Positions 3,386 through 48,176 of a stretch of 64,000 bases of DNA are shown here, piece after piece. Numbering within the stretch: the stretch's first letter is position 1; the number at the start of each line of letters is the position of its first letter. The notes under the pieces are model-generated. The model saw only the letters and a program-made list of their open reading frames with translations. It had not been told where the DNA came from and made no database searches. The stretch comes from Escherichia coli (GTDB lineage: Bacteria > Pseudomonadota > Gammaproteobacteria > Enterobacterales > Enterobacteriaceae): assembly GCF_044324785.1 (NCBI RefSeq), contig NZ_CP172127.1; one strand, written 5' to 3'. Position numbers and translations under genes: made by a program.

Positions 3386-4336
3386 TTACTGCTGCTGTAA
3401 ACGTGCTTCGATGGCATCCATTAACATTCCGGTGATCGACACCGGAAACTCTGCTTCAATCTCACGAATACAGGTTGGGCTGGTGACGTTAATTTCAGTC
3501 AGACGGTCGCCGATGATATCCAGACCAACAAAAATCAGCCCTTTTTCTTTCAGCGTCGGCCCAATCTGACGGGCGATTTTCCAGTCACTTTCCGTCAGCG
3601 GACGAGGTTCACCGCGACCACCGGCAGCCAGATTGCCACGGGTTTCGCCCCCCTGCGGAATACGCGCCAGGCAATACGGCACCGGCTCGCCATCCACTAC
3701 CAGCACGCGTTTGTCGCCATCTTTAATGGCTGGCAGGTAATTTTGCGCCATGCAGTAGCGAGTGCCATGCTCAGTCAGGGTTTCGGCAATCACGCCGAGG
3801 TTTGGATCACCTTCTTTCACGCGGAAAATCGACGCGCCGCCCATACCGTCCAGCGGCTTAAGAATGATGTCGCTGTGTTTTTCCCAGAAAGCTTTTAGCT
3901 GCGCTTTATTGCGTGTGACCAGCGTTTCTGGTGTTAAGTCAGAGAACCAGGCAGTGAACAGTTTTTCGTTACAATCGCGCAGGCTCTGCGGCTTGTTAAC
4001 GATCAGCGTCCCTTTATCTTCGGCACGTTCCAGAATATAGGTCGCGTAGATAAACTCGGTATCAAACGGCGGGTCTTTACGCATCAGGATCACATCGAGA
4101 TCGGCCAGCGGCAGATCCTGCTCACCCGTGAACTCGTACCATTTATCGTAGTTCTGTTCGACGCTCAAAGTACGGGTACGAGCGCGAGCCTCACCATTGA
4201 TCAAATAGAGATCGGCCATCTCCATATAGTGAAGTTCGTAACCACGACGCTGTGCTTCCAGCAACATAGCGAAACTGGAATCTTTCTTGATGTTGATGTT
4301 TGCGATGGGGTCCATCACGATGCCGAGCTTGATCAT
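3386..4336 (-). CDS. gshB: glutathione synthetase
   Basis: 316-aa ORF MIKLGIVMDPIANINIKKDSSFAMLLEAQRRGYELHY... Confidence 0.95.
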   Translation of the reverse strand: MIKLGIVMDPIANINIKKDSSFAMLLEAQRRGYELHYMEMADLYLINGEARARTRTLSVEQNYDKWYEFTGEQDLPLADLDVILMRKDPPFDTEFIYATYILERAEDKGTLIVNKPQSLRDCNEKLFTAWFSDLTPETLVTRNKAQLKAFWEKHSDIILKPLDGMGGASIFRVKEGDPNLGVIAETLTEHGTRYCMAQNYLPAIKDGDKRVLVVDGEPVPYCLARIPQGGETRGNLAAGGRGEPRPLTESDWKIARQIGPTLKEKGLIFVGLDIIGDRLTEINVTSPTCIREIEAEFPVSITGMLMDAIEARLQQQ

Positions 4337-6535: not shown

Positions 6536-7930
6536 TTAATCGTGAGCGCCGATTTCGCGCAGTTTACGACCTTTCATCAGATTACGTTCAATATGTTCCA
6601 GCGAAACGTGTTTGGTTTCCGGTACCAGCCACAATGTCAGCAGGATAAACAGTACGTTCAGAGCAGCATACACCCAGAAGGTGTTGGCGTTACCCAGCGT
6701 GTTGAGCATGGTCAGGAACGTTGCGCCAACGATCATGTTGGCAATCCAGTTGGTGGCAGTGGAGCAGGTGATGCCAAAATCGCGGCCTTTCAGCGGCTGA
6801 ATTTCGGAGCACAGTACCCAAATCAGCGGACCGGCACTCATGGCAAAACCGACAATAAACATCAGCAGCATGGCGATGGCGAAATACTGCGCCGACGGAG
6901 AGTGGATACCGATATGCATCATTGTACCGAGTACGCCCATACCAGCAGCCATCACCAGGAAGCCCAGCGTTAGCGTTGGTTTACGTCCCCAGCGGTCAAC
7001 AAGGCCGATTGCGATAAAGGTGGCAAGTACGTTGGTCAGGCCGACAATCACTGTCCCCCACATTTGCTCGGTGGTGTTGGTATAACCCGCCAGTTCGAAG
7101 ATTTTCGGCGCGTAATACATGATGACGTTCATCCCGGTGAATTGCTGCATTACCTGCAATAGTACGCCAAGGAACACCGCGCGGCGGAAGTTGCTATTCT
7201 CTTTAAACAGCGCCCAGCCACTCTGTTTAACCTGCAAACTTTCACGGATTTCATCCAGTTCGCGTTTCGCTTCCGCGCTGGTGTCACGCAGGCGTAGCAG
7301 CACGCGTTCGGCATCAACAAAACGGCGTTTGGCGGCAAACCAACGTGGGCTGTCTGGCAGGAAGAAGACACCAATCAGCAGCAAAATTGCCGGGATGATA
7401 ATCACACCCAGCATCCAGCGCCATGCACCGGTGTAGCTGAAGGCGGTATCAGAAAGATAAGCGCCGAGGATCCCGATAGTGATCATCAACTGATACATCG
7501 AGATCATACTGCCGCGAATTTTTTCCGGCGCAATTTCAGAGAGGTACAGCGGTGCGGTATAAGAGGCCACACCCACTGCCAGCCCCAGCAAAACGCGGGA
7601 AAGAATCAGTACTTCAACGTTTGGCGCAGCAGCAGAGAACAGTGAACCGGCAACAAACAAGATTGCGCCGATCATCAGGCTCTTTTTGCGCCCGAGTTTA
7701 AAGGAGAGCCAGCCGCTGCCCACCGCACCGACTGCCGCACCGAACATCATGGAGCTTACGACCCATTCTTGCGTGTGCGAAGTAATCTGGAATTCATCTG
7801 CAATAAACGGCAGTGCGCCAGCAATTACACCGATATCCAGGCCAAAGAGTAATCCCGCCAGAGCGGCAAGGAAGCAGACGAAAAACGTCATTGCCTTGTT
7901 TGACCGCCCCTGTTTTTTAGCGTCAGGCAT
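6536..7930 (-). CDS. galP: galactose:H+ symporter (MFS)
   Basis: Start at [32 protein letters not shown] (464 aa). Confidence 0.95.
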
Positions 7931-8274
7931 GATGCCCTCCAATATGGTTATTTTTTATTGTGAATTAAGATAGGTGAGTACGACGTAAAAAGATGTGAAG
8001 CAAATCACATCAGTGTAATCGCTTACACTAACATTTATCTTAGTTATGATTTAAGTGCATGAAAATAATTGAGTTATATCATCATAGATTAAACGCTGTT
8101 ATCTGCAATTAAGACTTTACTGAAAAGAAATGTAACAACTGTGAAAACCGAATAATAATATGAAAATATTACAAATCTTTGTCTGGTGTGGTTGGTGTAA
8201 TCGGTTTCAGTAGCGATGATAATTTGCGGTAAAACGTGTTCAGGAAGAATGATGTTATTGTGCGGGCAGCTTTT

Positions 8275-8305
8275 TGCCGGATGCCGCGTGAACGCCTATC
8301 CACCG
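8275..8305. repeat. partial REP-like element
   Basis: gccggatgccgcgtgaacgcctatcc resembles the REP consensus, in the metK-galP gap. Confidence 0.45.
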
Positions 8306-8310
8306 CGGTG

Positions 8311-8343
8311 AGGTAAAAGAAAAAGGCCAGCGCGAGGCTGGCC
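8311..8343 (-). terminator. metK intrinsic terminator
   Basis: Palindrome ggccagc-gcgag-gctggcc; on the reverse strand it is followed by a T-run, about 20 nt past the metK stop. Confidence 0.75.
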
Positions 8344-8365
8344 TTTGAAAGCAGGTGAAGAAAGA

Positions 8366-9520
8366 TTACTTCAGACCGGCAGCATCGCGCAGCAGCTGCG
8401 CTTTGTCGGTTTTTTCCCACGGGAAATGTTCGCGACCAAAGTGACCGTATGCTGCGGTTTCTTTGTAGATCGGGTGCAGCAGATCCAGCATCTGAATCAG
8501 ACCGTATGGACGCAGGTCAAAGAACTCACGTACCAGCAGAGTCAGTTGTTCAGAAGGCACTTTCTCGGTACCGAAAGTTTCCACCATGATAGAGGTCGGT
8601 TCAGCCACGCCGATTGCGTAGGAAACCTGAATTTCACAACGATCGGCCAGGCCAGCAGCAACGATGTTTTTCGCGACATAACGTGCTGCGTACGCTGCGG
8701 AACGGTCCACTTTTGATGGATCTTTACCAGAGAATGCACCACCACCGTGACGTGCCATGCCGCCGTAGGTATCAACGATAATTTTACGACCAGTCAGACC
8801 GCAGTCACCCATCGGGCCACCGATAACAAAACGACCGGTCGGGTTGATGAAGAATTTGGTGGCAGAAGTCAGCCATTCAGCCGGCAGAATCGGCTTGATG
8901 ATCTCTTCCATTACCGCTTCTTGCAGCGATTTCTGGTCGATTTCTTCAGAGTGCTGAGTGGAAAGCACGACAGCATCGATACCAACGATTTTGCCGTCGT
9001 CATACTGGAAAGTCACCTGGCTTTTCGCGTCCGGGCGCAGCCACGGCAGAGTGCCGTTTTTACGCACTTCAGCCTGACGCTGTACCAGACGGTGTGCATA
9101 GGTGATAGGCGCTGGCATCAGCACGTCGGTTTCATTGGTTGCGTAGCCAAACATCAGACCCTGGTCACCCGCGCCCTGTTCCAGCGGATCGGCACGGTCA
9201 ACGCCCTGGTTGATGTCAGGAGACTGTTTGCCGATAGCGCTCAGAACCGCACAGGAGTTAGCGTCAAAGCCCATGTCGGAATGTACATAGCCAATTTCGC
9301 GAACGGTGTTACGGGTGATCTCTTCGATGTCTACCCAGGCGCTGGTGGTGATTTCGCCGCCAACTAAAACCATGCCGGTTTTTACGTAGGTTTCGCAAGC
9401 AACGCGTGCTTTCGGATCCTGTTCGAGGATCGCGTCTAAAACGGCATCAGAGATTTGGTCAGCAATTTTGTCAGGATGCCCTTCAGAGACGGACTCGGAC
9501 GTAAAAAGGTGTTTTGCCAT
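8366..9520 (-). CDS. metK: S-adenosylmethionine synthetase
   Basis: Start at [25 protein letters not shown] (384 aa). Confidence 0.97.
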
Positions 9521-15307: not shown

Positions 15308-17299
15308 ATGTCCTCACGTAAAGAGCTTGCCAATGCTATTCGTGCGCTGAGCATGGACGCAGTACAGAAAGCCAAATCCGGTCACCCGGGTGCCCCTATG
15401 GGTATGGCTGACATTGCCGAAGTCCTGTGGCGTGATTTCCTGAAACACAACCCGCAGAATCCGTCCTGGGCTGACCGTGACCGCTTCGTGCTGTCCAACG
15501 GCCACGGCTCCATGCTGATCTACAGCCTGCTGCACCTCACCGGTTACGATCTGCCGATGGAAGAACTGAAAAACTTCCGTCAGCTGCACTCTAAAACTCC
15601 GGGTCACCCGGAAGTGGGTTACACCGCTGGTGTGGAAACCACTACTGGTCCGCTGGGTCAGGGTATTGCCAACGCAGTCGGTATGGCGATTGCAGAAAAA
15701 ACGCTGGCGGCGCAGTTTAACCGTCCGGGCCACGACATTGTCGACCACTACACCTACGCCTTCATGGGCGACGGCTGCATGATGGAAGGCATCTCCCACG
15801 AGGTTTGCTCTCTGGCGGGTACGCTGAAGCTGGGTAAACTGATTGCGTTCTACGATGACAACGGTATCTCTATCGATGGTCACGTTGAAGGCTGGTTTAC
15901 TGACGACACCGCAATGCGTTTCGAAGCTTACGGCTGGCACGTTATTCGCGGCATCGACGGTCATGACGCGGCATCCATCAAACGCGCAGTAGAAGAAGCG
16001 CGCGCAGTGACTGACAAACCGTCCCTGCTGATGTGCAAAACCATCATCGGTTTCGGTTCACCGAACAAAGCCGGTACGCACGACTCCCACGGTGCGCCGC
16101 TGGGCGACGCTGAAATCGCCCTGACCCGCGAACAGCTGGGCTGGAAATATGCACCGTTCGAAATCCCGTCTGAAATCTATGCTCAGTGGGATGCGAAAGA
16201 AGCAGGCCAGGCGAAAGAATCCGCATGGAACGAGAAATTCGCAGCTTACGCGAAAGCTTATCCGCAGGAAGCCGCTGAATTTACCCGCCGTATGAAAGGC
16301 GAAATGCCGTCTGACTTCGACGCTAAAGCGAAAGAGTTCATCGCTAAACTGCAGGCTAACCCGGCGAAAATCGCCAGCCGTAAAGCGTCTCAGAATGCGA
16401 TTGAAGCGTTCGGTCCGCTGTTGCCGGAATTCCTCGGCGGCTCTGCTGACCTGGCACCGTCTAACCTGACCCTGTGGTCTGGTTCTAAAGCAATCAACGA
16501 AGATGCTGCGGGTAACTACATCCACTACGGTGTTCGCGAGTTCGGTATGACCGCGATTGCTAACGGTATCTCCCTGCACGGTGGCTTCCTGCCGTACACC
16601 TCCACCTTCCTGATGTTCGTGGAATACGCACGTAACGCCGTACGTATGGCTGCGCTGATGAAACAGCGTCAGGTGATGGTTTACACCCACGACTCCATCG
16701 GTCTGGGCGAAGATGGCCCGACTCACCAGCCGGTAGAGCAGGTTGCTTCTCTGCGCGTGACCCCGAACATGTCTACATGGCGTCCATGTGACCAGGTTGA
16801 ATCTGCAGTGGCATGGAAATACGGTGTTGAGCGTCAGGACGGCCCGACTGCGCTTATCCTCTCCCGTCAGAACCTGGCGCAGCAGGAGCGTACTGAAGAG
16901 CAGCTGGCAAACATCGCGCGCGGTGGTTATGTGCTGAAAGACTGTGCCGGTCAGCCGGAACTGATCTTCATCGCGACCGGTTCGGAAGTTGAACTGGCGG
17001 TTGCCGCCTACGAAAAACTGACTGCCGAAGGCGTGAAGGCGCGCGTGGTTTCCATGCCGTCTACCGACGCATTCGACAAGCAGGATGCGGCTTACCGTGA
17101 ATCCGTACTGCCGAAAGCGGTTACTGCACGCGTTGCGGTGGAAGCTGGCATTGCTGACTACTGGTACAAGTATGTTGGCCTGAACGGTGCTATCGTCGGC
17201 ATGACCACCTTCGGTGAGTCTGCCCCGGCAGAACTGCTGTTTGAAGAGTTCGGCTTCACCGTTGACAACGTTGTTGCGAAAGCAAAAGAACTGCTGTAA
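15308..17299 (+). CDS. tktA: transketolase 1
   Basis: Start at [35 protein letters not shown] (663 aa). Confidence 0.97.
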
Positions 17300-17321
17300 T
17301 CGGTAAGATGCTTTGTGAGAA

Positions 17322-17346
17322 GGGCCGCGAAAGCGGCCCTTTTTTT
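17322..17346 (+). terminator. tktA intrinsic terminator
   Basis: gggccgcgaaagcggccc followed by ttttttt; overlaps the stop codon of the convergent SPFH gene. Confidence 0.85.
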
Positions 17347-18253
17347 ACTTAGTAGAGATAAACGGAACTGTACTGCCGGGGATCATGGTATCGGGTAGCT
17401 TACCGTCCCAACGCTCAGCAGTGGTGAGGGCAACAAGTCCGGGATTATCCCGCAGAGCTTCACCGCGCAGGCGGATCGCTTCTGCTTCAGCCGCACTTTT
17501 TAAACGAATAGTTTCAGCCTCTGCCGCGCCTCTTACGCGAATAGTCTCAGCTTCTGCTTTGGCTGCCGCCAGTTTACTGTCTGCTTCTGCCTGGGCCTGA
17601 GTTACCGCTATTTGCGCCTGGATTTTCTCTGTTTCCAGATTTTGCTTACGCGTGGCAATGGCGACTTCTGCTTTCATTCGGTCTTCAATCGACTTTTCAT
17701 AAGCGTCAGAAAAATCAATATTTTCAATCTGGACCCCGTCAATTACCACTGGCCCAACAACGGCTTTGCGCATGGCATTTTGCAGATCCTGAACCAGTTT
17801 TGTACGATCCTGTACCGCGCTGATGGCGGTATATTGGCCGAAAACGTTCTCCAGTTGAGTTGGCAACTGACGGACAATCAGACGATCTTTTAATGCTTCA
17901 ATGGTGTTGTAGGTGGTATAAACCGCGCCTGCTTCTGAAGGTTTAATGTGGAAGCTGACTGATACTGTCATTTGTGCCGGTTGCTGGTCGCGGCTGTAGG
18001 CCTGTAATCCCTGATAGACCACAGCCTGATTACGCGTGGAAATTTTCTCCACGCTTTCCATAAACGGGATCTTAAAACCCAGACCCGGCTCGGCAACTTT
18101 TACGATTTTTCCGTAGCGCAGCAAAATGCCGCGTTCACCTTCATTAACGGTGTAATACGAGAGAAATGGCAGCACAACCACGGCAAGCACGCCAATGGCG
18201 ATAGCAAGAGATTTTTGTGGGCGAAATGAGGTTAATGAAACAGGTGCTTTCAT
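17345..18253 (-). CDS. SPFH/band-7 (prohibitin/HflC-like) membrane protein, 302 aa; not recalled at this locus in K-12
   Basis: Start taken at MKAPVSLTSFRPQKSLAIAIGVLAVVVLPFL, preceded by aaggaag; N-terminal TM helix, SPFH-like core, Ala/Glu-rich C-terminal repeats. Confidence 0.75.
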   Translation of the reverse strand: MKAPVSLTSFRPQKSLAIAIGVLAVVVLPFLSYYTVNEGERGILLRYGKIVKVAEPGLGFKIPFMESVEKISTRNQAVVYQGLQAYSRDQQPAQMTVSVSFHIKPSEAGAVYTTYNTIEALKDRLIVRQLPTQLENVFGQYTAISAVQDRTKLVQDLQNAMRKAVVGPVVIDGVQIENIDFSDAYEKSIEDRMKAEVAIATRKQNLETEKIQAQIAVTQAQAEADSKLAAAKAEAETIRVRGAAEAETIRLKSAAEAEAIRLRGEALRDNPGLVALTTAERWDGKLPDTMIPGSTVPFISTK

Positions 18254-18629
18254 ATGAATCTTCCTTGAGTAAAGTGGGGAATATGTCACATGAGGTAAGG
18301 AGAAAATAGCCGACAGGTGAGAATTCAGAATCTATAAAGGGGTATAGCGAAAAAACGTTGCATTAAAAAAGTATGTTTTCGGATATTCAATAAATAAATG
18401 GCGATATGCATCACAAATACAATAACTAACAAAATGTTGATTTTGTGATAAACATAACAAATACAAAGTTGACTTTAAAAATATCAATTTCATATTGTTG
18501 TTATTTAAGGTTTTATTATTTTGGTTTATGGGGTTTTTCTTCTCGCGTACCCAATTGCTTTCATTAAACCGCACGAGTATTTTATTTTTACCGCCGGACG
18601 GTACCCTAAAAATAAAATAAGGATAATTT

Positions 18630-19073
18630 ATGCGGCTTAGTGATTATTTTCCAGAATCATCAATCTCAGTTATACATTCAGCAAAAGATTGGCAGGAAGC
18701 TATCGATTTCTCGATGGCATCATTGCTGGATAAAAACTATATCAGCGAGAATTACATTCAGGCAATTAAAGATTCCACCATTAACAATGGCCCTTATTAT
18801 ATTCTCGCGCCAGGTGTGGCAATGCCTCATGCGCGACCGGAATGTGGGGCGCTTAAAACCGGGATGTCTTTGACGTTACTTAAACAAGGCGTTTATTTTC
18901 CGGGGAATGACGAACCGATTAAATTACTCATCGGGCTTTCTGCTGCCGATGCCGATTCGCACATTGGCGCTATTCAGGCGTTAAGTGAATTACTGTGCGA
19001 AGAAGAAATACTCGAACAACTCTTAACAGCATCATCAGAAAAACAATTAGCGGACATTATCAGCTGCGGATAA
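18630..19073 (+). CDS. cmtB: cryptic mannitol-type PTS enzyme IIA
   Basis: 147-aa ORF MRLSDYFPESSISVIHSAKDWQEAIDF... Confidence 0.9.
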   Translation: MRLSDYFPESSISVIHSAKDWQEAIDFSMASLLDKNYISENYIQAIKDSTINNGPYYILAPGVAMPHARPECGALKTGMSLTLLKQGVYFPGNDEPIKLLIGLSAADADSHIGAIQALSELLCEEEILEQLLTASSEKQLADIISCG

Positions 19074-19100: not shown

Positions 19101-20489
19101 ATGGAAAACAAGTCTGCTCGTGCAAAGGTCCAGGCTTTTGGGGGCTTTTTGACGGCAATGGTCATCCCCAATATCGGTGCTTTTATTGCCTGGGGTTTTA
19201 TTACTGCATTATTTATTCCTACTGGTTGGCTGCCGAATGAACATTTCGCCAAAATTGTCGGCCCGATGATTACCTATTTATTGCCCGTGATGATTGGTTC
19301 TACCGGTGGTCATCTGGTCGGCGGTAAACGCGGCGCGGTCATGGGCGGAATTGGTACGATTGGTGTGATCGTCGGCGCAGAGATCCCGATGTTCCTTGGC
19401 TCAATGATTATGGGGCCGCTCGGTGGGCTGGTCATAAAATATGTCGATAAGGCACTGGAAAAACGCATACCTGCTGGTTTTGAGATGGTTATCAATAACT
19501 TCTCATTAGGTATCGCGGGGATGCTCCTTTGTCTGCTGGGTTTTGAAGTGATCGGCCCGGCGGTGTTAATTGCCAATACTTTCGTCAAAGAGTGTATTGA
19601 GGCGCTGGTACATGCGGGTTATCTGCCTCTGCTGTCAGTCATCAATGAACCGGCGAAAGTGCTTTTCCTTAATAATGCGATCGATCAGGGCGTCTATTAT
19701 CCGCTGGGAATGCAACAGGCTTCGGTTAACGGTAAATCCATCTTCTTTATGGTGGCCTCTAACCCAGGTCCGGGCCTGGGGCTGCTGCTGGCGTTTACCT
19801 TGTTTGGTAAAGGGATGAGTAAACGTTCTGCGCCCGGGGCGATGATTATTCACTTCCTCGGTGGGATCCACGAACTGTATTTCCCATATGTGCTGATGAA
19901 GCCGCTGACTATTATTGCCATGATTGCGGGCGGTATGTCTGGCACCTGGATGTTTAACTTACTGGACGGTGGTCTGGTGGCTGGCCCAAGTCCGGGGTCT
20001 ATCTTTGCTTACCTGGCGCTGACGCCGAAAGGTTCGTTCCTGGCGACAATTGCCGGTGTTACGGTAGGTACCCTGGTGTCCTTTGCTATCACTTCGCTGA
20101 TACTGAAGATGGAAAAAACGGTGGAAACGGAGAGCGAAGATGAGTTTGCTCAGTCAGCCAATGCGGTTAAGGCGATGAAACAAGAGGGTGCATTCTCGTT
20201 AAGCCGGGTTAAGCGTATCGCCTTTGTTTGCGATGCGGGGATGGGCTCCAGCGCGATGGGCGCAACCACCTTCCGTAAACGTCTGGAAAAAGCGGGGCTG
20301 GCAATTGAAGTAAAACATTACGCGATAGAAAACGTGCCTGCGGATGCGGATATCGTTGTTACTCATGCCAGTCTGGAAGGGCGCGTGAAACGTGTGACGG
20401 ATAAACCGCTGATACTGATTAATAACTATATTGGCGATCCAAAACTCGACACTTTATTTAATCAATTAACCGCCGAACATAAAAACTGA
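19101..20489 (+). CDS. cmtA: cryptic mannitol-type PTS enzyme IICB
   Basis: 462-aa polytopic membrane ORF following cmtB. Confidence 0.9.
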   Translation: MENKSARAKVQAFGGFLTAMVIPNIGAFIAWGFITALFIPTGWLPNEHFAKIVGPMITYLLPVMIGSTGGHLVGGKRGAVMGGIGTIGVIVGAEIPMFLGSMIMGPLGGLVIKYVDKALEKRIPAGFEMVINNFSLGIAGMLLCLLGFEVIGPAVLIANTFVKECIEALVHAGYLPLLSVINEPAKVLFLNNAIDQGVYYPLGMQQASVNGKSIFFMVASNPGPGLGLLLAFTLFGKGMSKRSAPGAMIIHFLGGIHELYFPYVLMKPLTIIAMIAGGMSGTWMFNLLDGGLVAGPSPGSIFAYLALTPKGSFLATIAGVTVGTLVSFAITSLILKMEKTVETESEDEFAQSANAVKAMKQEGAFSLSRVKRIAFVCDAGMGSSAMGATTFRKRLEKAGLAIEVKHYAIENVPADADIVVTHASLEGRVKRVTDKPLILINNYIGDPKLDTLFNQLTAEHKN

Positions 20490-22764: not shown

Positions 22765-23274
22765 ATGGCGACGCTGACAGAAGATGATGTGCTTGAGCAA
22801 CTGGATGCACAGGACAATTTATTTTCATTTATGAAAACTGCGCATTCTATTTTGCTCCAGGGGATACGCCAGTTTCTGCCGTCGCTGTTTGTCGATAATG
22901 ATGAAGAGATCGTCGAATATGCAGTGAAGCCGTTACTCGCCCAAAGCGGCCCGCTTGACGATATTGATGTTGCACTGCGTTTGATTTACGCGCTGGGGAA
23001 AATGGATAAATGGTTGTACGCCGATATCACGCATTTTTCCCAGTTTTGGCATTACCTGAACGAACAGGATGAAACGCCCGGATTTGCCGATGATATAACC
23101 TGGGATTTTATCAGCAACGTCAATAGCATAATCCGCAATGCGAGTCTCTATGACGCGTTGAAAGCGATGAAATTCGCCGATTTCGCCGTCTGGTCAGAGG
23201 CGCGTTTTAGCGGGATGGTCAAAACGGCGCTGACGCTGGCAGTAACGACCACCTTAAAGGAATTAACGCCGTGA
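22765..23274 (+). CDS. yggD: MtlR-like protein YggD (also named FumE)
   Basis: 169-aa ORF MATLTEDDVLEQLDAQDNLFSFMKTAHSILLQ... Confidence 0.88.
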   Translation: MATLTEDDVLEQLDAQDNLFSFMKTAHSILLQGIRQFLPSLFVDNDEEIVEYAVKPLLAQSGPLDDIDVALRLIYALGKMDKWLYADITHFSQFWHYLNEQDETPGFADDITWDFISNVNSIIRNASLYDALKAMKFADFAVWSEARFSGMVKTALTLAVTTTLKELTP

Positions 23275-45431: not shown

Positions 45432-46634
45432 ATGCAAAGTGTTGATGTAGCCATTGTTGGCGGCGGCATGGTGGGGCTGGCGGTTGCCTGCGGCTTGCAG
45501 GGTAGTGGCTTACGCGTTGCCGTACTGGAGCAGCGCGTACCGGAACCTCTGGCGGCGGATGCACCACCACAACTGCGCGTTTCGGCTATCAATGCCGCCA
45601 GCGAAAAATTACTCACCCGTCTTGGCGTCTGGCAGGACATTCTCTCTCGTAGGGCCAGCTGTTATCACGGTATGGAAGTGTGGGACAAAGACAGCTTTGG
45701 TCACATTTCGTTTGACGATCAAAGCATGGGCTATAGCCATCTTGGGCATATCGTTGAAAATTCAGTGATTCACTACGCGCTGTGGAACAAAGCGCAGCAG
45801 TCGTCAGATATCACTCTGTTAGCCCCCGCAGAATTACAGCAGGTCGCCTGGGGAGAAAATGAAACCTTCCTGACGCTGAAAGATGGCAGCATGTTAACGG
45901 CGCGTCTGGTGATTGGCGCGGACGGCGCTAATTCCTGGTTGCGCAACAAAGCCGATATTCCGCTGACTTTCTGGGATTATCAGCATCACGCGCTGGTAGC
46001 GACCATTCGCACGGAAGAACCGCATGATGCGGTGGCGCGGCAGGTTTTCCATGGCGAAGGCATTCTGGCCTTTTTACCGCTTAGCGATCCGCATCTTTGC
46101 TCGATTGTCTGGTCACTGTCGCCAGAGGAAGCGCAGCGGATGCAGCAGGCAAGTGAAGACGAATTTAATCGCGCGTTAAATATCGCTTTTGATAATCGCC
46201 TGGGCTTATGCAAGGTTGAGAGCGAGCGTCAGGTGTTCCCGCTGACGGGGCGTTATGCCCGCCAGTTTGCCGCACACCGTCTGGCGTTGGTGGGCGACGC
46301 CGCGCATACTATTCACCCGCTCGCGGGGCAGGGCGTTAATCTCGGCTTTATGGATGCCGCAGAGCTGATTGCCGAACTGAAACGGTTGCATCGTCAGGGT
46401 AAAGACATCGGGCAGTACATTTACCTGCGTCGCTATGAGCGTAGCCGTAAGCACAGTGCGGCGCTGATGCTGGCTGGTATGCAGGGATTTCGCGATCTGT
46501 TTTCCGGTACCAATCCGGCGAAAAAACTGCTGCGTGATATTGGTCTGAAACTGGCCGACACGCTTCCTGGCGTTAAACCACAACTTATCCGCCAGGCAAT
46601 GGGATTAAACGATTTGCCTGAATGGCTGCGTTAA
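45432..46634 (+). CDS. ubiI: 2-octaprenylphenol hydroxylase UbiI (VisC)
   Basis: 400-aa flavin monooxygenase ORF MQSVDVAIVGGGMVGLAVACGLQGSGLRVAVLEQ... Confidence 0.93.
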   Translation: MQSVDVAIVGGGMVGLAVACGLQGSGLRVAVLEQRVPEPLAADAPPQLRVSAINAASEKLLTRLGVWQDILSRRASCYHGMEVWDKDSFGHISFDDQSMGYSHLGHIVENSVIHYALWNKAQQSSDITLLAPAELQQVAWGENETFLTLKDGSMLTARLVIGADGANSWLRNKADIPLTFWDYQHHALVATIRTEEPHDAVARQVFHGEGILAFLPLSDPHLCSIVWSLSPEEAQRMQQASEDEFNRALNIAFDNRLGLCKVESERQVFPLTGRYARQFAAHRLALVGDAAHTIHPLAGQGVNLGFMDAAELIAELKRLHRQGKDIGQYIYLRRYERSRKHSAALMLAGMQGFRDLFSGTNPAKKLLRDIGLKLADTLPGVKPQLIRQAMGLNDLPEWLR

Positions 46635-46677
46635 AAATTTCTCCTCTGTTGTTTATTTGATACCCATCACACTTTCA

Positions 46678-46706
46678 TCTCCCGGTTTTTTCGCCGGGAG
46701 ATTTTC
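46678..46706 (+). terminator. ubiI intrinsic terminator
   Basis: atctcccgg-tttttt-cgccgggagat followed by tttcc. Confidence 0.75.
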
Positions 46707-47081
46707 CTCATTTGAAATAAACTAATTTCACCTCCGTTTTCGCATTATATTTTCTAATGTCACGAATTTTTGATTTAGTGTTTTTTGACATTTTTTCAGT
46801 TCTTAATATTGCTTTATTCAAATTAAGTTTCTCATCACATCATCTTTGTATAGAAACTGGAATGTTTTTTGGTTTTTTATTCTGTTGCTATTCTGGCGTT
46901 TTTTAACCATAAGCTAATGTGATGATCAATTTTACCTTATGGTTAACAGTCTGTTTCGGTGGTAAGTTCAGGCAAAAGAGAACGATTGCGTTGGGGACCG
47001 GGAGTGGCTCCGATGCTGGGTTTCGTGGTGATAATTTCGCCATGGAAAAGTTGTCAGCCCCGCTTATTCAATGAGGACAAG

Positions 47082-48176
47082 ATGGCACAACAGACTCCTT
47101 TGTACGAACAACACACGCTTTGCGGCGCTCGCATGGTGGATTTCCACGGCTGGATGATGCCGCTGCATTACGGTTCGCAAATCGACGAACATCATGCGGT
47201 ACGTACCGATGCCGGAATGTTTGATGTGTCACATATGACCATCGTCGATCTTCGCGGCAGCCGCACCCGGGAGTTTTTGCGTTATCTGCTGGCGAACGAT
47301 GTGGCGAAGCTCACCAAAAGCGGCAAAGCCCTTTACTCGGGGATGTTGAATGCCTCTGGCGGTGTGATAGATGATCTCATCGTCTACTATTTTACTGAAG
47401 ATTTCTTCCGCCTCGTTGTTAACTCCGCCACCCGCGAAAAAGACCTCTCCTGGATCACCCAACACGCTGAACCTTTCGGCATCGAAATTACCGTTCGTGA
47501 TGACCTTTCCATGATTGCCGTGCAAGGGCCGAATGCGCAGGCAAAAGCTGCCACACTGTTTAATGACGCTCAGCGTCAGGCGGTGGAAGGGATGAAACCG
47601 TTCTTTGGCGTGCAGGCGGGCGATCTGTTTATTGCCACCACTGGTTATACCGGTGAAGCGGGCTATGAAATTGCGCTGCCCAATGAAAAAGCGGCCGATT
47701 TCTGGCGTGCGCTGGTGGAAGCGGGCGTTAAGCCATGCGGCCTGGGCGCGCGTGACACGCTGCGTCTGGAAGCGGGTATGAATCTTTATGGTCAGGAGAT
47801 GGACGAAACCATCTCTCCGTTAGCCGCCAACATGGGCTGGACTATCGCTTGGGAACCGGCAGATCGTGACTTTATCGGTCGTGAAGCCCTGGAAGTGCAG
47901 CGTGAGCATGGCACAGAAAAACTGGTTGGTCTGGTGATGACCGAAAAAGGCGTGCTGCGTAATGAACTGCCGGTACGCTTTACCGATGCGCAGGGCAACC
48001 AGCATGAAGGCATTATCACCAGCGGTACTTTCTCTCCGACGCTGGGTTACAGCATTGCGCTGGCGCGCGTGCCGGAAGGTATTGGTGAAACAGCGATTGT
48101 GCAAATTCGCAACCGTGAAATGCCGGTTAAAGTGACGAAACCTGTTTTTGTGCGTAACGGTAAAGCCGTCGCGTGA
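47082..48176 (+). CDS. gcvT: glycine cleavage system T protein
   Basis: Start at [33 protein letters not shown] (364 aa). Confidence 0.96.

Follow-up and report, generated by a model that had tools for sequence, protein, structure and literature searches.

An AT-rich spacer upstream of cmtB in Escherichia coli as a probable operon control region with two predicted CRP sites at MtlR-type spacing

Among the closest described counterparts of the region analyzed here is the control region of the mtlADR operon of Escherichia coli. Its repressor MtlR lacks a DNA-binding domain; instead, an MtlR dimer represses by docking on a pair of CRP dimers (Lee et al., NAR 2026, PMC13421365). Docking needs CRP sites that are 43-46 bp apart, with an optimum at 44-45 bp; the inter-CRP sequence is irrelevant to MtlR, and a malK operator engineered to 44-bp spacing suffices. 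The residues of MtlR that contact CRP are R167 and L178, and the repressor is released when it binds a loop (residues 383-393) of the dephosphorylated IIB domain of MtlA (Lee et al. 2026). Here, we describe an AT-rich intergenic tract of 376 bp (positions 18254-18629) between a gene encoding an SPFH/prohibitin-family protein and cmtB, located in a stretch of 64,000 nucleotides of the E. coli contig NZ_CP172127.1 (assembly GCF_044324785.1), which is referred to as the window in the following. We propose that this tract serves as control region of the cmtBA-yggPFDC operon and that it carries a pair of CRP sites with the spacing known from mtl.

A second point of reference is the cmtB promoter of other E. 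coli strains. A CRP site with the sequence CGTGTTGTAGATCACA was recovered there by genomic SELEX (systematic evolution of ligands by exponential enrichment), and a reporter fusion comprising the whole spacer lost activity when crp was mutated, though the loss was given as a decrease only (Shimada 2011, PMC3105977). The same site was found by ChIP-seq (chromatin immunoprecipitation sequencing) in the enterotoxigenic E. coli (ETEC) strain H10407 with a fold-above-threshold value of 16, so that the CRP peak at cmtB ranks fifth, behind yibI, mtlA, ppiA/tsgA, and fdoG (Haycocks et al. 2015, PMC4287617). Both papers list a single site, leaving a second site and the 44-bp spacing unremarked. The window shares with this K-12/ETEC promoter the locus, the position of site 1, and the last 78 bp, but the core of its spacer is only about 48% identical, and an SPFH gene lies upstream. 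Beyond CRP, one of three data sets in Table S8 of Myers (2013) lists cmtBA-yggPFDC of MG1655 with reduced expression in an fnr mutant; in the supplements of that study, cmtBA appears solely as weakly FNR-dependent, and a preprint on pangenome expression quantitative trait loci does not mention cmtB.

We searched the window for CRP-like sites with a position weight matrix trained on 105 sites taken from the ChIP-seq data of Haycocks et al. (2015), from which the cmtB site was excluded (training median, 13.0 bits). The tract contains two such sites: site 1, GGCGATATGCATCACA (18400-18415), scores 13.0 bits and is centered at 18407.5, that is, at -222.5 relative to the cmtB ATG, whereas site 2, TGTGATAAACATAACA (18444-18459), scores 15.1 bits and is centered at 18451.5 (-178.5). 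Counted from the same ATG, the sites start at -230 and -186. The 28 bp between them (18416-18443), which are free to vary in sequence, set a center-to-center distance of 44 bp. Only four positions of the 64 kb reach 12 bits or more, two of which are sites 1 and 2, and among 5000 shuffles of the tract the best score was reached in two and the second-best in none. No other pair in the window combines a spacing of 43-46 bp with at least 8 bits for both sites. Site 1 coincides in position with the experimentally found K-12/ETEC site, and the K-12-type allele carries CGTGTTGTAGATCACA and TGTAATATGCATCACG at the positions of sites 1 and 2, respectively. Binding of cyclic AMP (cAMP)-CRP and activation by CRP in the absence of glucose have been demonstrated at cmtB for the K-12 allele and are predicted for the window allele. 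The ChIP score of 16 at the K-12-allele site is compatible with two bound CRP dimers but does not prove two. Applied to the mtl region of MG1655, our own scan returned spacings of 43, 44, 73, and 44 bp, as given by Lee et al. (2026).

We next compared the spacers upstream of cmtB in other genomes, for which a scan with CmtB in one genome per species yielded 33 loci. Outside Escherichia, those loci that extend far enough upstream show tkt, then a spacer of 300-345 bp, then cmtB, and never an SPFH gene. The G+C content of these spacers is 0.29-0.39 versus 0.46-0.51 in their flanks. Such an AT-rich spacer was found in Citrobacter, Salmonella, Kluyvera, Raoultella, Silvania, Lelliottia, Enterobacter, Huaxiibacter, and Superficieibacter, and a homologous one is present in all 11 examined genera carrying cmtB, so that its distribution is not patchy. 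E. coli strains without the SPFH gene, including MG1655 (3,079,331-3,079,643), have a tkt-cmtB spacer of 313 bp that is equally AT-rich (G+C 0.32). When the spacer cores were compared ungapped and anchored at the cmtB ATG, identity across the genera and the two E. coli forms was 43-54%, compared with 31.8 ± 3.3% (maximum, 38.8%) in wrong registers. Because the ungapped identity exceeds the wrong-register values, we regard the tkt-cmtB spacers as homologous and conserved in length. Of 23 spacers compared, from at least nine genera, 18 have their best two CRP-like sites at a distance of exactly 44 bp, whereas only 2.8% of shuffles place their best two sites at 43-46 bp. The same pair is found in two further genomes, of S. 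enterica and a Kluyvera, and in MG1655. The distance of the pair to the cmtB ATG is likewise constant across genera if small indels are allowed for. As far as sequence comparison can tell, AT-richness has thus long characterized the DNA upstream of cmtB in the Enterobacteriaceae, independently of the SPFH gene, and the tract is a vertically inherited control region of cmtBA-yggPFDC.

The genes downstream of the tract resemble those of the mtl circuit. The first, cmtB (18630-19073, plus strand), encodes an EIIA protein (Pfam PTS_EIIA_2) and the second, cmtA (19101-20489, plus strand), an EIICB protein with the IIB loop VCDAGMGSSAM, which by sequence matches the MtlA loop ACDAGMGSSAM (383-393) at 10 of 11 residues. 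Further downstream on the same strand, yggD (22765-23274) encodes an MtlR-family protein (PF05068, 4.6e-52, full length; PDB 3c8g). When MtlR is aligned with 16 YggD orthologues, just 25 columns are invariant, and those of R167 and L178 are among them. The order cmtB-cmtA-yggP-yggF-yggD-yggC is kept in Salmonella and Kluyvera. In the same strain pairs, dN/dS is 0.12-0.77 for cmtB versus 0.02-0.03 for cmtA, indicating much weaker constraint on cmtB.

Taken together, the cmt operon matches the mtl circuit in all sequence-level parts: the CRP pair, the MtlR-family gene, and the IIB loop. Both systems have adjacent CRP sites 44 bp apart, a spacer of fixed length but unrelated sequence between them, an MtlR-family gene inside the regulated operon, an EIICB of the mannitol family encoded by that operon, and a very strong CRP ChIP signal. 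They differ in that mtl has five CRP sites and cmt one pair, in their G+C content (0.425 vs 0.31), in the EIIA function, which in cmt resides in the separate protein CmtB, and in the regulator itself, YggD being 32% identical to MtlR and lacking its N-terminal extension. Moreover, docking has been demonstrated biochemically for mtl, while for cmt the comparison uses sequence features. A more distant parallel is deoP2, where the repressor CytR is held between two CRP dimers and blocks activation; CytR, however, binds DNA itself, whereas MtlR-family proteins have no DNA-binding domain, and the CRP sites at deoP2 are ~52-53 bp apart instead of 44.

The tract as a whole has a G+C content of 0.309. 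A preliminary description of this DNA had delimited it as 18290-18629 and estimated its G+C content by eye at around 30%, far below the flanking genes. The computed value for this interval is 0.300, compared with a mean of 0.518 over the window (standard deviation of 340-bp windows, 0.046) and with 0.494, 0.428, 0.500, and 0.563 for SPFH, cmtB, cmtA, and tktA, respectively, so that both statements hold. Windows of 340 bp with this little G+C or less make up just 0.11% of the total, and the minimum for the 64 kb (0.285) is reached in the one starting at 18350. The right edge of the tract was retained, but its left edge had been set by a GTG at 18289 as start of the SPFH gene (17345-18253, minus strand; 302 amino acids). 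The ATG at 18253 is the more probable start: it has a Shine-Dalgarno sequence (AAGGAAG) 6 nt upstream, homologues are 288-302 amino acids long, and the Prokaryotic Genome Annotation Pipeline (PGAP) annotates the 302-amino-acid protein from this start in strain ECCWS199, which is 99.4% identical. With this start, the intergenic region comprises 18254-18629. The tract contains 14 runs of at least four A or four T, versus 6.9 expected from composition (P=0.005). A calculation of DNA curvature had been suggested for this region; AA/TT power shows no excess periodicity at 10-11 bp in the tract, and hence there is no sign of curvature by phased A-tracts. Two further spots of the window are almost as AT-rich (G+C minima 0.32 and 0.31), so that such spacers are uncommon but not unique. 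Each of these spots, 7814-8368 and 46495-47113, contains a top-scoring CRP-like site: TGTGAAGCAAATCACA at position 7994, which is the published galP CRP site, and TTTGATACCCATCACA at position 46656 with 15.4 bits.

By composition and conservation, the tract can be divided into three segments: an SPFH-proximal segment (18254-18340; G+C 0.39), which presumably holds the 5' untranslated region and promoter of the SPFH gene on the minus strand; a hypervariable core (18341-18551; G+C 0.265), which is kept in length but varies in sequence and includes the CRP pair; and a conserved cmtB-proximal segment (18552-18629; G+C 0.33) with a putative leader and/or core promoter of cmtB on the plus strand. 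The last segment is 100% identical to the K-12-like allele of strain 503440 (L002), with blocks kept across genera.

Both strands of the tract were scanned for promoters and terminators and compared with shuffles. The minus strand contains no promoter-like match, and the two overlapping matches on the plus strand are not above shuffle level. A -35-like TTGACT (18469-18474) on the plus strand is kept across genera as TTGAC/TTGCT; its -10 partner is uncertain, being either CATATT (18491-18496) or TATTGT (18493-18498). A candidate extended -10 element, TGtTATTTA (18499-18507), lies inside a conserved block TGTT.T..A. If used, it would start transcription at around 18511-18514, leaving the CRP pair at about -60/-104, resembling CRP5 and CRP4 of mtl at -58.5/-102.5 (Lee et al. 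2026). An alternative core promoter within the cmtB-proximal segment consists of TTGCTT (18555-18560) and TATTTT (18578-18583) separated by 17 nt; both hexamers are nearly invariant across genera, and with 7 of 12 matches this promoter falls under the scan threshold. Depending on which of the three candidate promoters is used, with starts near 18503, 18511-18514, or 18590, site 2 would fall at about -52, -60, or -138, respectively.

In the same segment, TATTTTATTTTTA (18578-18590) and TAAAAATAAAATA (18607-18619) form an inverted repeat of 13 bp without mismatch, which on the plus strand abuts the Shine-Dalgarno sequence AGGA (18620-18623) of cmtB. The region 18550-18650 folds with -23.3 kcal/mol (z -2.95), and the hairpin is retained by most of 25 taxa. 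In E. albertii, a deletion in one arm is accompanied by changes in the other that restore pairing. In an ungapped alignment, 84% of the cells are paired versus 38-50% in slid controls; covariation is weak (0.140 vs 0.119 ± 0.007), and RNAalifold predicted no structure from the gapped alignment of 25 leader sequences. The conserved 78 bp next to cmtB may therefore represent either a core promoter or a leader hairpin, the latter being hypothetical given the weak covariation and the RNAalifold result. In strain GIMC1409 (L007, 3356-4053), an IS1 element at the junction of core and leader (~18553/18554) parts the CRP pair from cmtB.

Based on these observations, we propose the following model, to whose central claim, a cmtBA-yggPFDC control region built around a 44-bp CRP pair with an MtlR-family protein proposed to dock on it, we assign a probability of roughly 0.6 on the sequence evidence. 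The tract would control the sugar-alcohol operon cmtBA-yggPFDC and, in the SPFH haplotype, would be common to this operon and the divergent SPFH gene. In the absence of glucose, cAMP-CRP bound to the pair would activate transcription towards cmtB. Owing to the 44-bp distance between the two CRP dimers, an MtlR-family protein (YggD, MtlR, or both) could dock on them as a dimer and block activation, until the dephosphorylated IIB domain of the transporter draws the docked protein to the membrane and the block is lifted. The "cryptic" behavior of the operon would then be accounted for, as the docked protein blocks activation. Constraint would act on the sites and their spacing only, while the surrounding DNA would change at a nearly neutral pace but gain no indels and remain AT-rich. 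The stricter version, in which cmt is a second natural MtlR-type operator and YggD its cognate CRP-docking anti-activator that is freed by the dephosphorylated IIB domain of CmtA, is put forward more tentatively, and we consider it somewhat less probable than its negation.

Several points weigh against this model. Lee et al. (2026) call mtl the only operator of E. coli with a CRP spacing of 43-46 bp, and neither cmt nor YggD occurs in the text of that paper. Site 2 is a predicted site in every allele, and the CRP experiments concern the K-12/ETEC allele and not that of the window. In addition, the B2-type E. coli allele (3.8 bits), Huaxiibacter, Superficieibacter, and a metagenome-assembled genome (MAG) of Enterobacter have only a weak site 2, and an extra site is found 42 bp upstream of site 1 in Lelliottia (L029), Huaxiibacter (L036), the Enterobacter MAG (L028), and Superficieibacter (L030). 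With three candidate starts, where the CRP pair lies with respect to the promoter is guesswork. The mtl control region has a G+C content of 42.5%, and because MtlR-type logic requires no low G+C, the AT-richness of the tract is explained only indirectly; H-NS may also bind there. Finally, YggD is named "fumarase E" in some sources, so that the function of this MtlR-family protein is described in two incompatible ways. As a separate observation, the triplet formed in Lelliottia, Huaxiibacter, the Enterobacter MAG, and Superficieibacter by the extra site and a weaker site 2 resembles CRP1-3 of mtl.

Alternatively, the tandem CRP sites could simply activate transcription without any docking of MtlR, in a spacer subject to AT-biased drift, with the operon staying quiet for want of an inducer or owing to a weak promoter. 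CRP binding and CRP dependence are indeed the sole facts established by experiment, and Lee et al. (2026) report no other target of MtlR. The rate of change of the core agrees with this explanation as well: in the three comparisons with the SPFH-containing alleles of Dog168, E. whittamii, and E. coli SCPM, the divergence K of the core from that of the window (0.09, 0.21, and 0.44, respectively) is close to the synonymous divergence dS of the flanks (0.10-0.13, 0.21-0.36, and 0.27-0.42), from which it follows that the core evolves roughly neutrally outside the sites. However, helical phasing alone would allow other spacings, whereas exactly 44 bp are found in 18 of the 23 spacers. Moreover, the paralogous mtl operon uses the same spacing for MtlR, any 44-bp CRP pair suffices in vitro, and the cmt operon encodes an MtlR paralogue that retains the CRP-contact residues. 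We therefore regard activation by CRP alone as unlikely, though a serious competitor to the docking model.

Two comparisons within E. coli are discordant with this neutral pattern. Between the window and EcN (phylogroup B2), the core differs with K 0.39 at a flank dS of 0.03-0.12, and between the window and the K-12-type with K 0.97 at a flank dS of 0.08-0.09, a comparison that also spans the presence or absence of the SPFH gene. The EcN core shows no indels at 30% difference, there are none in the core among taxa aligned in register, and all comparisons have their identity trough at the core. Towards the K-12-type, identity changes from 48% in the core to 100% from 18552 onwards, and in E. 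coli without SPFH, including K-12, a megablast match begins only at this position. An interpretation of 18552 as the edge of an indel was dropped: ungapped homology runs on to about -265, and the breakpoint is a recombination junction. The sequences thus indicate that the EcN- and K-12-type cores are deep alleles exchanged by recombination. The tkt terminators of the two forms differ as well: that of the K-12-type, GGTCGC-TTCG-GCGACC, is of the Salmonella/Citrobacter type, and that of the SPFH-type, GGGCCGC-GAAA-GCGGCCC, is the type common to tkt and SPFH in Kluyvera. The 68-bp segment bearing the pair was counted 3581 times in its K-12-type, 468 times in its window-type, and 468 times in its EcN-type form. 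In the latter (L004, 1642-1709), site 2 is degraded to TGTAGTTTACTTAACA with 3.8 bits, which predicts a different cmt regulation in B2 strains. Switched intergenic regions, a form of horizontal regulatory transfer, have been reviewed by Thorpe (2018, PMC5890482). Highly divergent spacer alleles between conserved genes, as described by this concept, are also seen at cmt; here, however, the alleles retain positional homology and the same site architecture and thereby their regulatory logic, with the B2-type as exception.

The genes around the tract are arranged in the order tktA (plus strand, to 17299), SPFH (minus strand), tract, cmtB, cmtA, yggP. The SPFH gene (Pfam Band_7, 5.6e-32) is transcribed away from the tract. 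Among 5426 complete genomes of E. coli, 1817 (~33%) carry it, together with a spacer of the window kind. Kluyvera, Klebsiella spallanzanii, and Phytobacter have homologues that are 80-88% identical. In Kluyvera and K. spallanzanii, the gene stands tail-to-tail with tkt, with the same terminator and followed by epd-pgk-fbaA, and the cmt cluster is absent; the spacer upstream of SPFH has a G+C content of 0.42-0.46 there and is not AT-rich. As pair and terminator occur in both genera, the sequences identify SPFH beside tkt as an old arrangement that was variably lost and not as a foreign island, and an insertion of the gene in Escherichia, which had been considered, was dropped for the same reason. 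The SPFH-proximal segment is 89-100% identical among E. coli alleles and contains the palindrome GAATTCAGAATC (18324-18335), whose core ATTCTGAAT occurs again upstream of SPFH in Kluyvera, with a related ATTCCGAAT in K. spallanzanii (L044, ~3920-3935; L047). A CRP-like site, TCTGACTTGCGTCACA, with 10 bits is present upstream of SPFH in both Kluyvera and K. spallanzanii. Many SPFH-containing strains carry an extra insert of ~175 bp between the tkt terminator and the SPFH stop codon (L003, 1501-1719; L004, 373-590) that resembles repetitive extragenic palindromic sequences or bacterial interspersed mosaic elements (REP/BIME; GCCGGATGCGGCGTGAACGCCTTATCCG); it is absent from the window (17300-17344).

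These data bear on another view of the tract, as horizontally acquired and H-NS-silenced DNA that arrived together with the SPFH gene, H-NS being what makes cmtBA cryptic. Mutation is known to be AT-biased, and in a neutrally evolving spacer this bias would be enough to explain the low G+C without adaptation; alternatively, the DNA between two CRP dimers may have to be bendable. A G+C content of 0.265-0.31 over more than 200 bp and twice the expected number of A/T runs make binding of H-NS plausible from base composition alone, the SPFH gene is variably present, and the deeply divergent alleles testify to replacement by recombination. There is also a suggestive parallel in bgl, a cryptic phosphotransferase system (PTS) operon that is silenced by H-NS and activated by IS insertions: it likewise has an AT-rich upstream region and a CRP site, and the IS1 in the tract of one strain recalls its activation. 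The cmt operon differs from bgl in an architecture that is conserved across genera, in having no BglG-type antiterminator among its genes, and in a leader in which Rfam detects nothing. The preliminary description had called the composition typical of horizontally acquired or H-NS-silenced DNA and fitting for an accessory origin of the SPFH gene. Horizontal acquisition is contradicted by the same AT-rich architecture in SPFH-less E. coli and in other genera, which makes AT-richness independent of SPFH and of horizontal transfer; calling the SPFH gene accessory is correct insofar as it is variably present, but its ordinary G+C content (0.494), its old synteny with tkt in Kluyvera and Klebsiella, and the spacer there, which is not AT-rich, do not bear out a foreign origin.

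Regarding H-NS itself, the A-tracts lack helical phasing, and the H-NS motif has a single weak match with two mismatches in the tract and 71 such matches in the window, which is uninformative. A text search of the literature found no H-NS binding data for cmtB or cmtA. In the study of Haycocks et al. (2015), H-NS was seen occluding CRP at other sites, yet the peak at cmtB, on the K-12 allele, was strong in vivo. Furthermore, cmtB is induced 4-8 fold in enterohaemorrhagic E. coli grown in bovine gut contents. Strong CRP peak, CRP-dependent fusion, and induction in gut contents argue against complete silencing by H-NS, and we infer that anti-activation by an MtlR-family protein on the CRP pair is the better-supported reason for crypticity. 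A horizontally acquired, H-NS-silenced tract is accordingly improbable.

That the tract encodes a small protein or small RNA is very improbable: its 80-amino-acid open reading frame (18332-18574, minus strand), which the preliminary description had rightly suspected of not being real, is broken by internal stop codons or by loss of its start in six of the nine Escherichia alleles compared (EcN, Trh52, E. coli SCPM, E. whittamii, MOD1-EC7003, and E. albertii) and has no Pfam match and no codon periodicity of allele differences (25/26/21), the core is neutral, no listed genome has an annotated feature inside the tract, and Rfam models, scanned over 17200-18800 at E<=1, match nowhere in it, the only hit being one below threshold at the tkt terminator, even though older PGAP annotations skip a locus tag. 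This subthreshold match, to AaHKsRNA20 (30.5 bits versus a gathering score of 43), lies over the bidirectional terminator of tkt and SPFH (17284-17351) and probably reflects merely the terminator hairpin. The locus tags omitted between the prohibitin gene and cmtB in L001 and L003 are D3W53_RS04210 and EW037_RS04555, and as the tags skip a number, the tract must formerly have held an annotated feature that was subsequently removed; in newer annotations, the SPFH gene and cmtB are numbered consecutively.

Returning to the proposed docking of an MtlR-family protein on the CRP pair, the cmt spacer provides a conserved and base-pair-exact second case of the MtlR geometry, which its authors hold to be unique. 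If the model is true, YggD would gain a function, the crypticity of cmtBA would be explained, and the claim that mtl is unique would be overturned. Lineages of E. coli would then differ in this circuit by allele replacement, the K-12-type and the window keeping both sites and the B2-type having lost site 2. The model raises testable questions about the role of YggD, the silence of cmt in the laboratory, and cross-regulation by MtlR. At the cmt locus of the Enterobacteriaceae, architecture appears to outlast sequence: the positions of the sites and their spacing persist amid neutral change and allele swaps between lineages.

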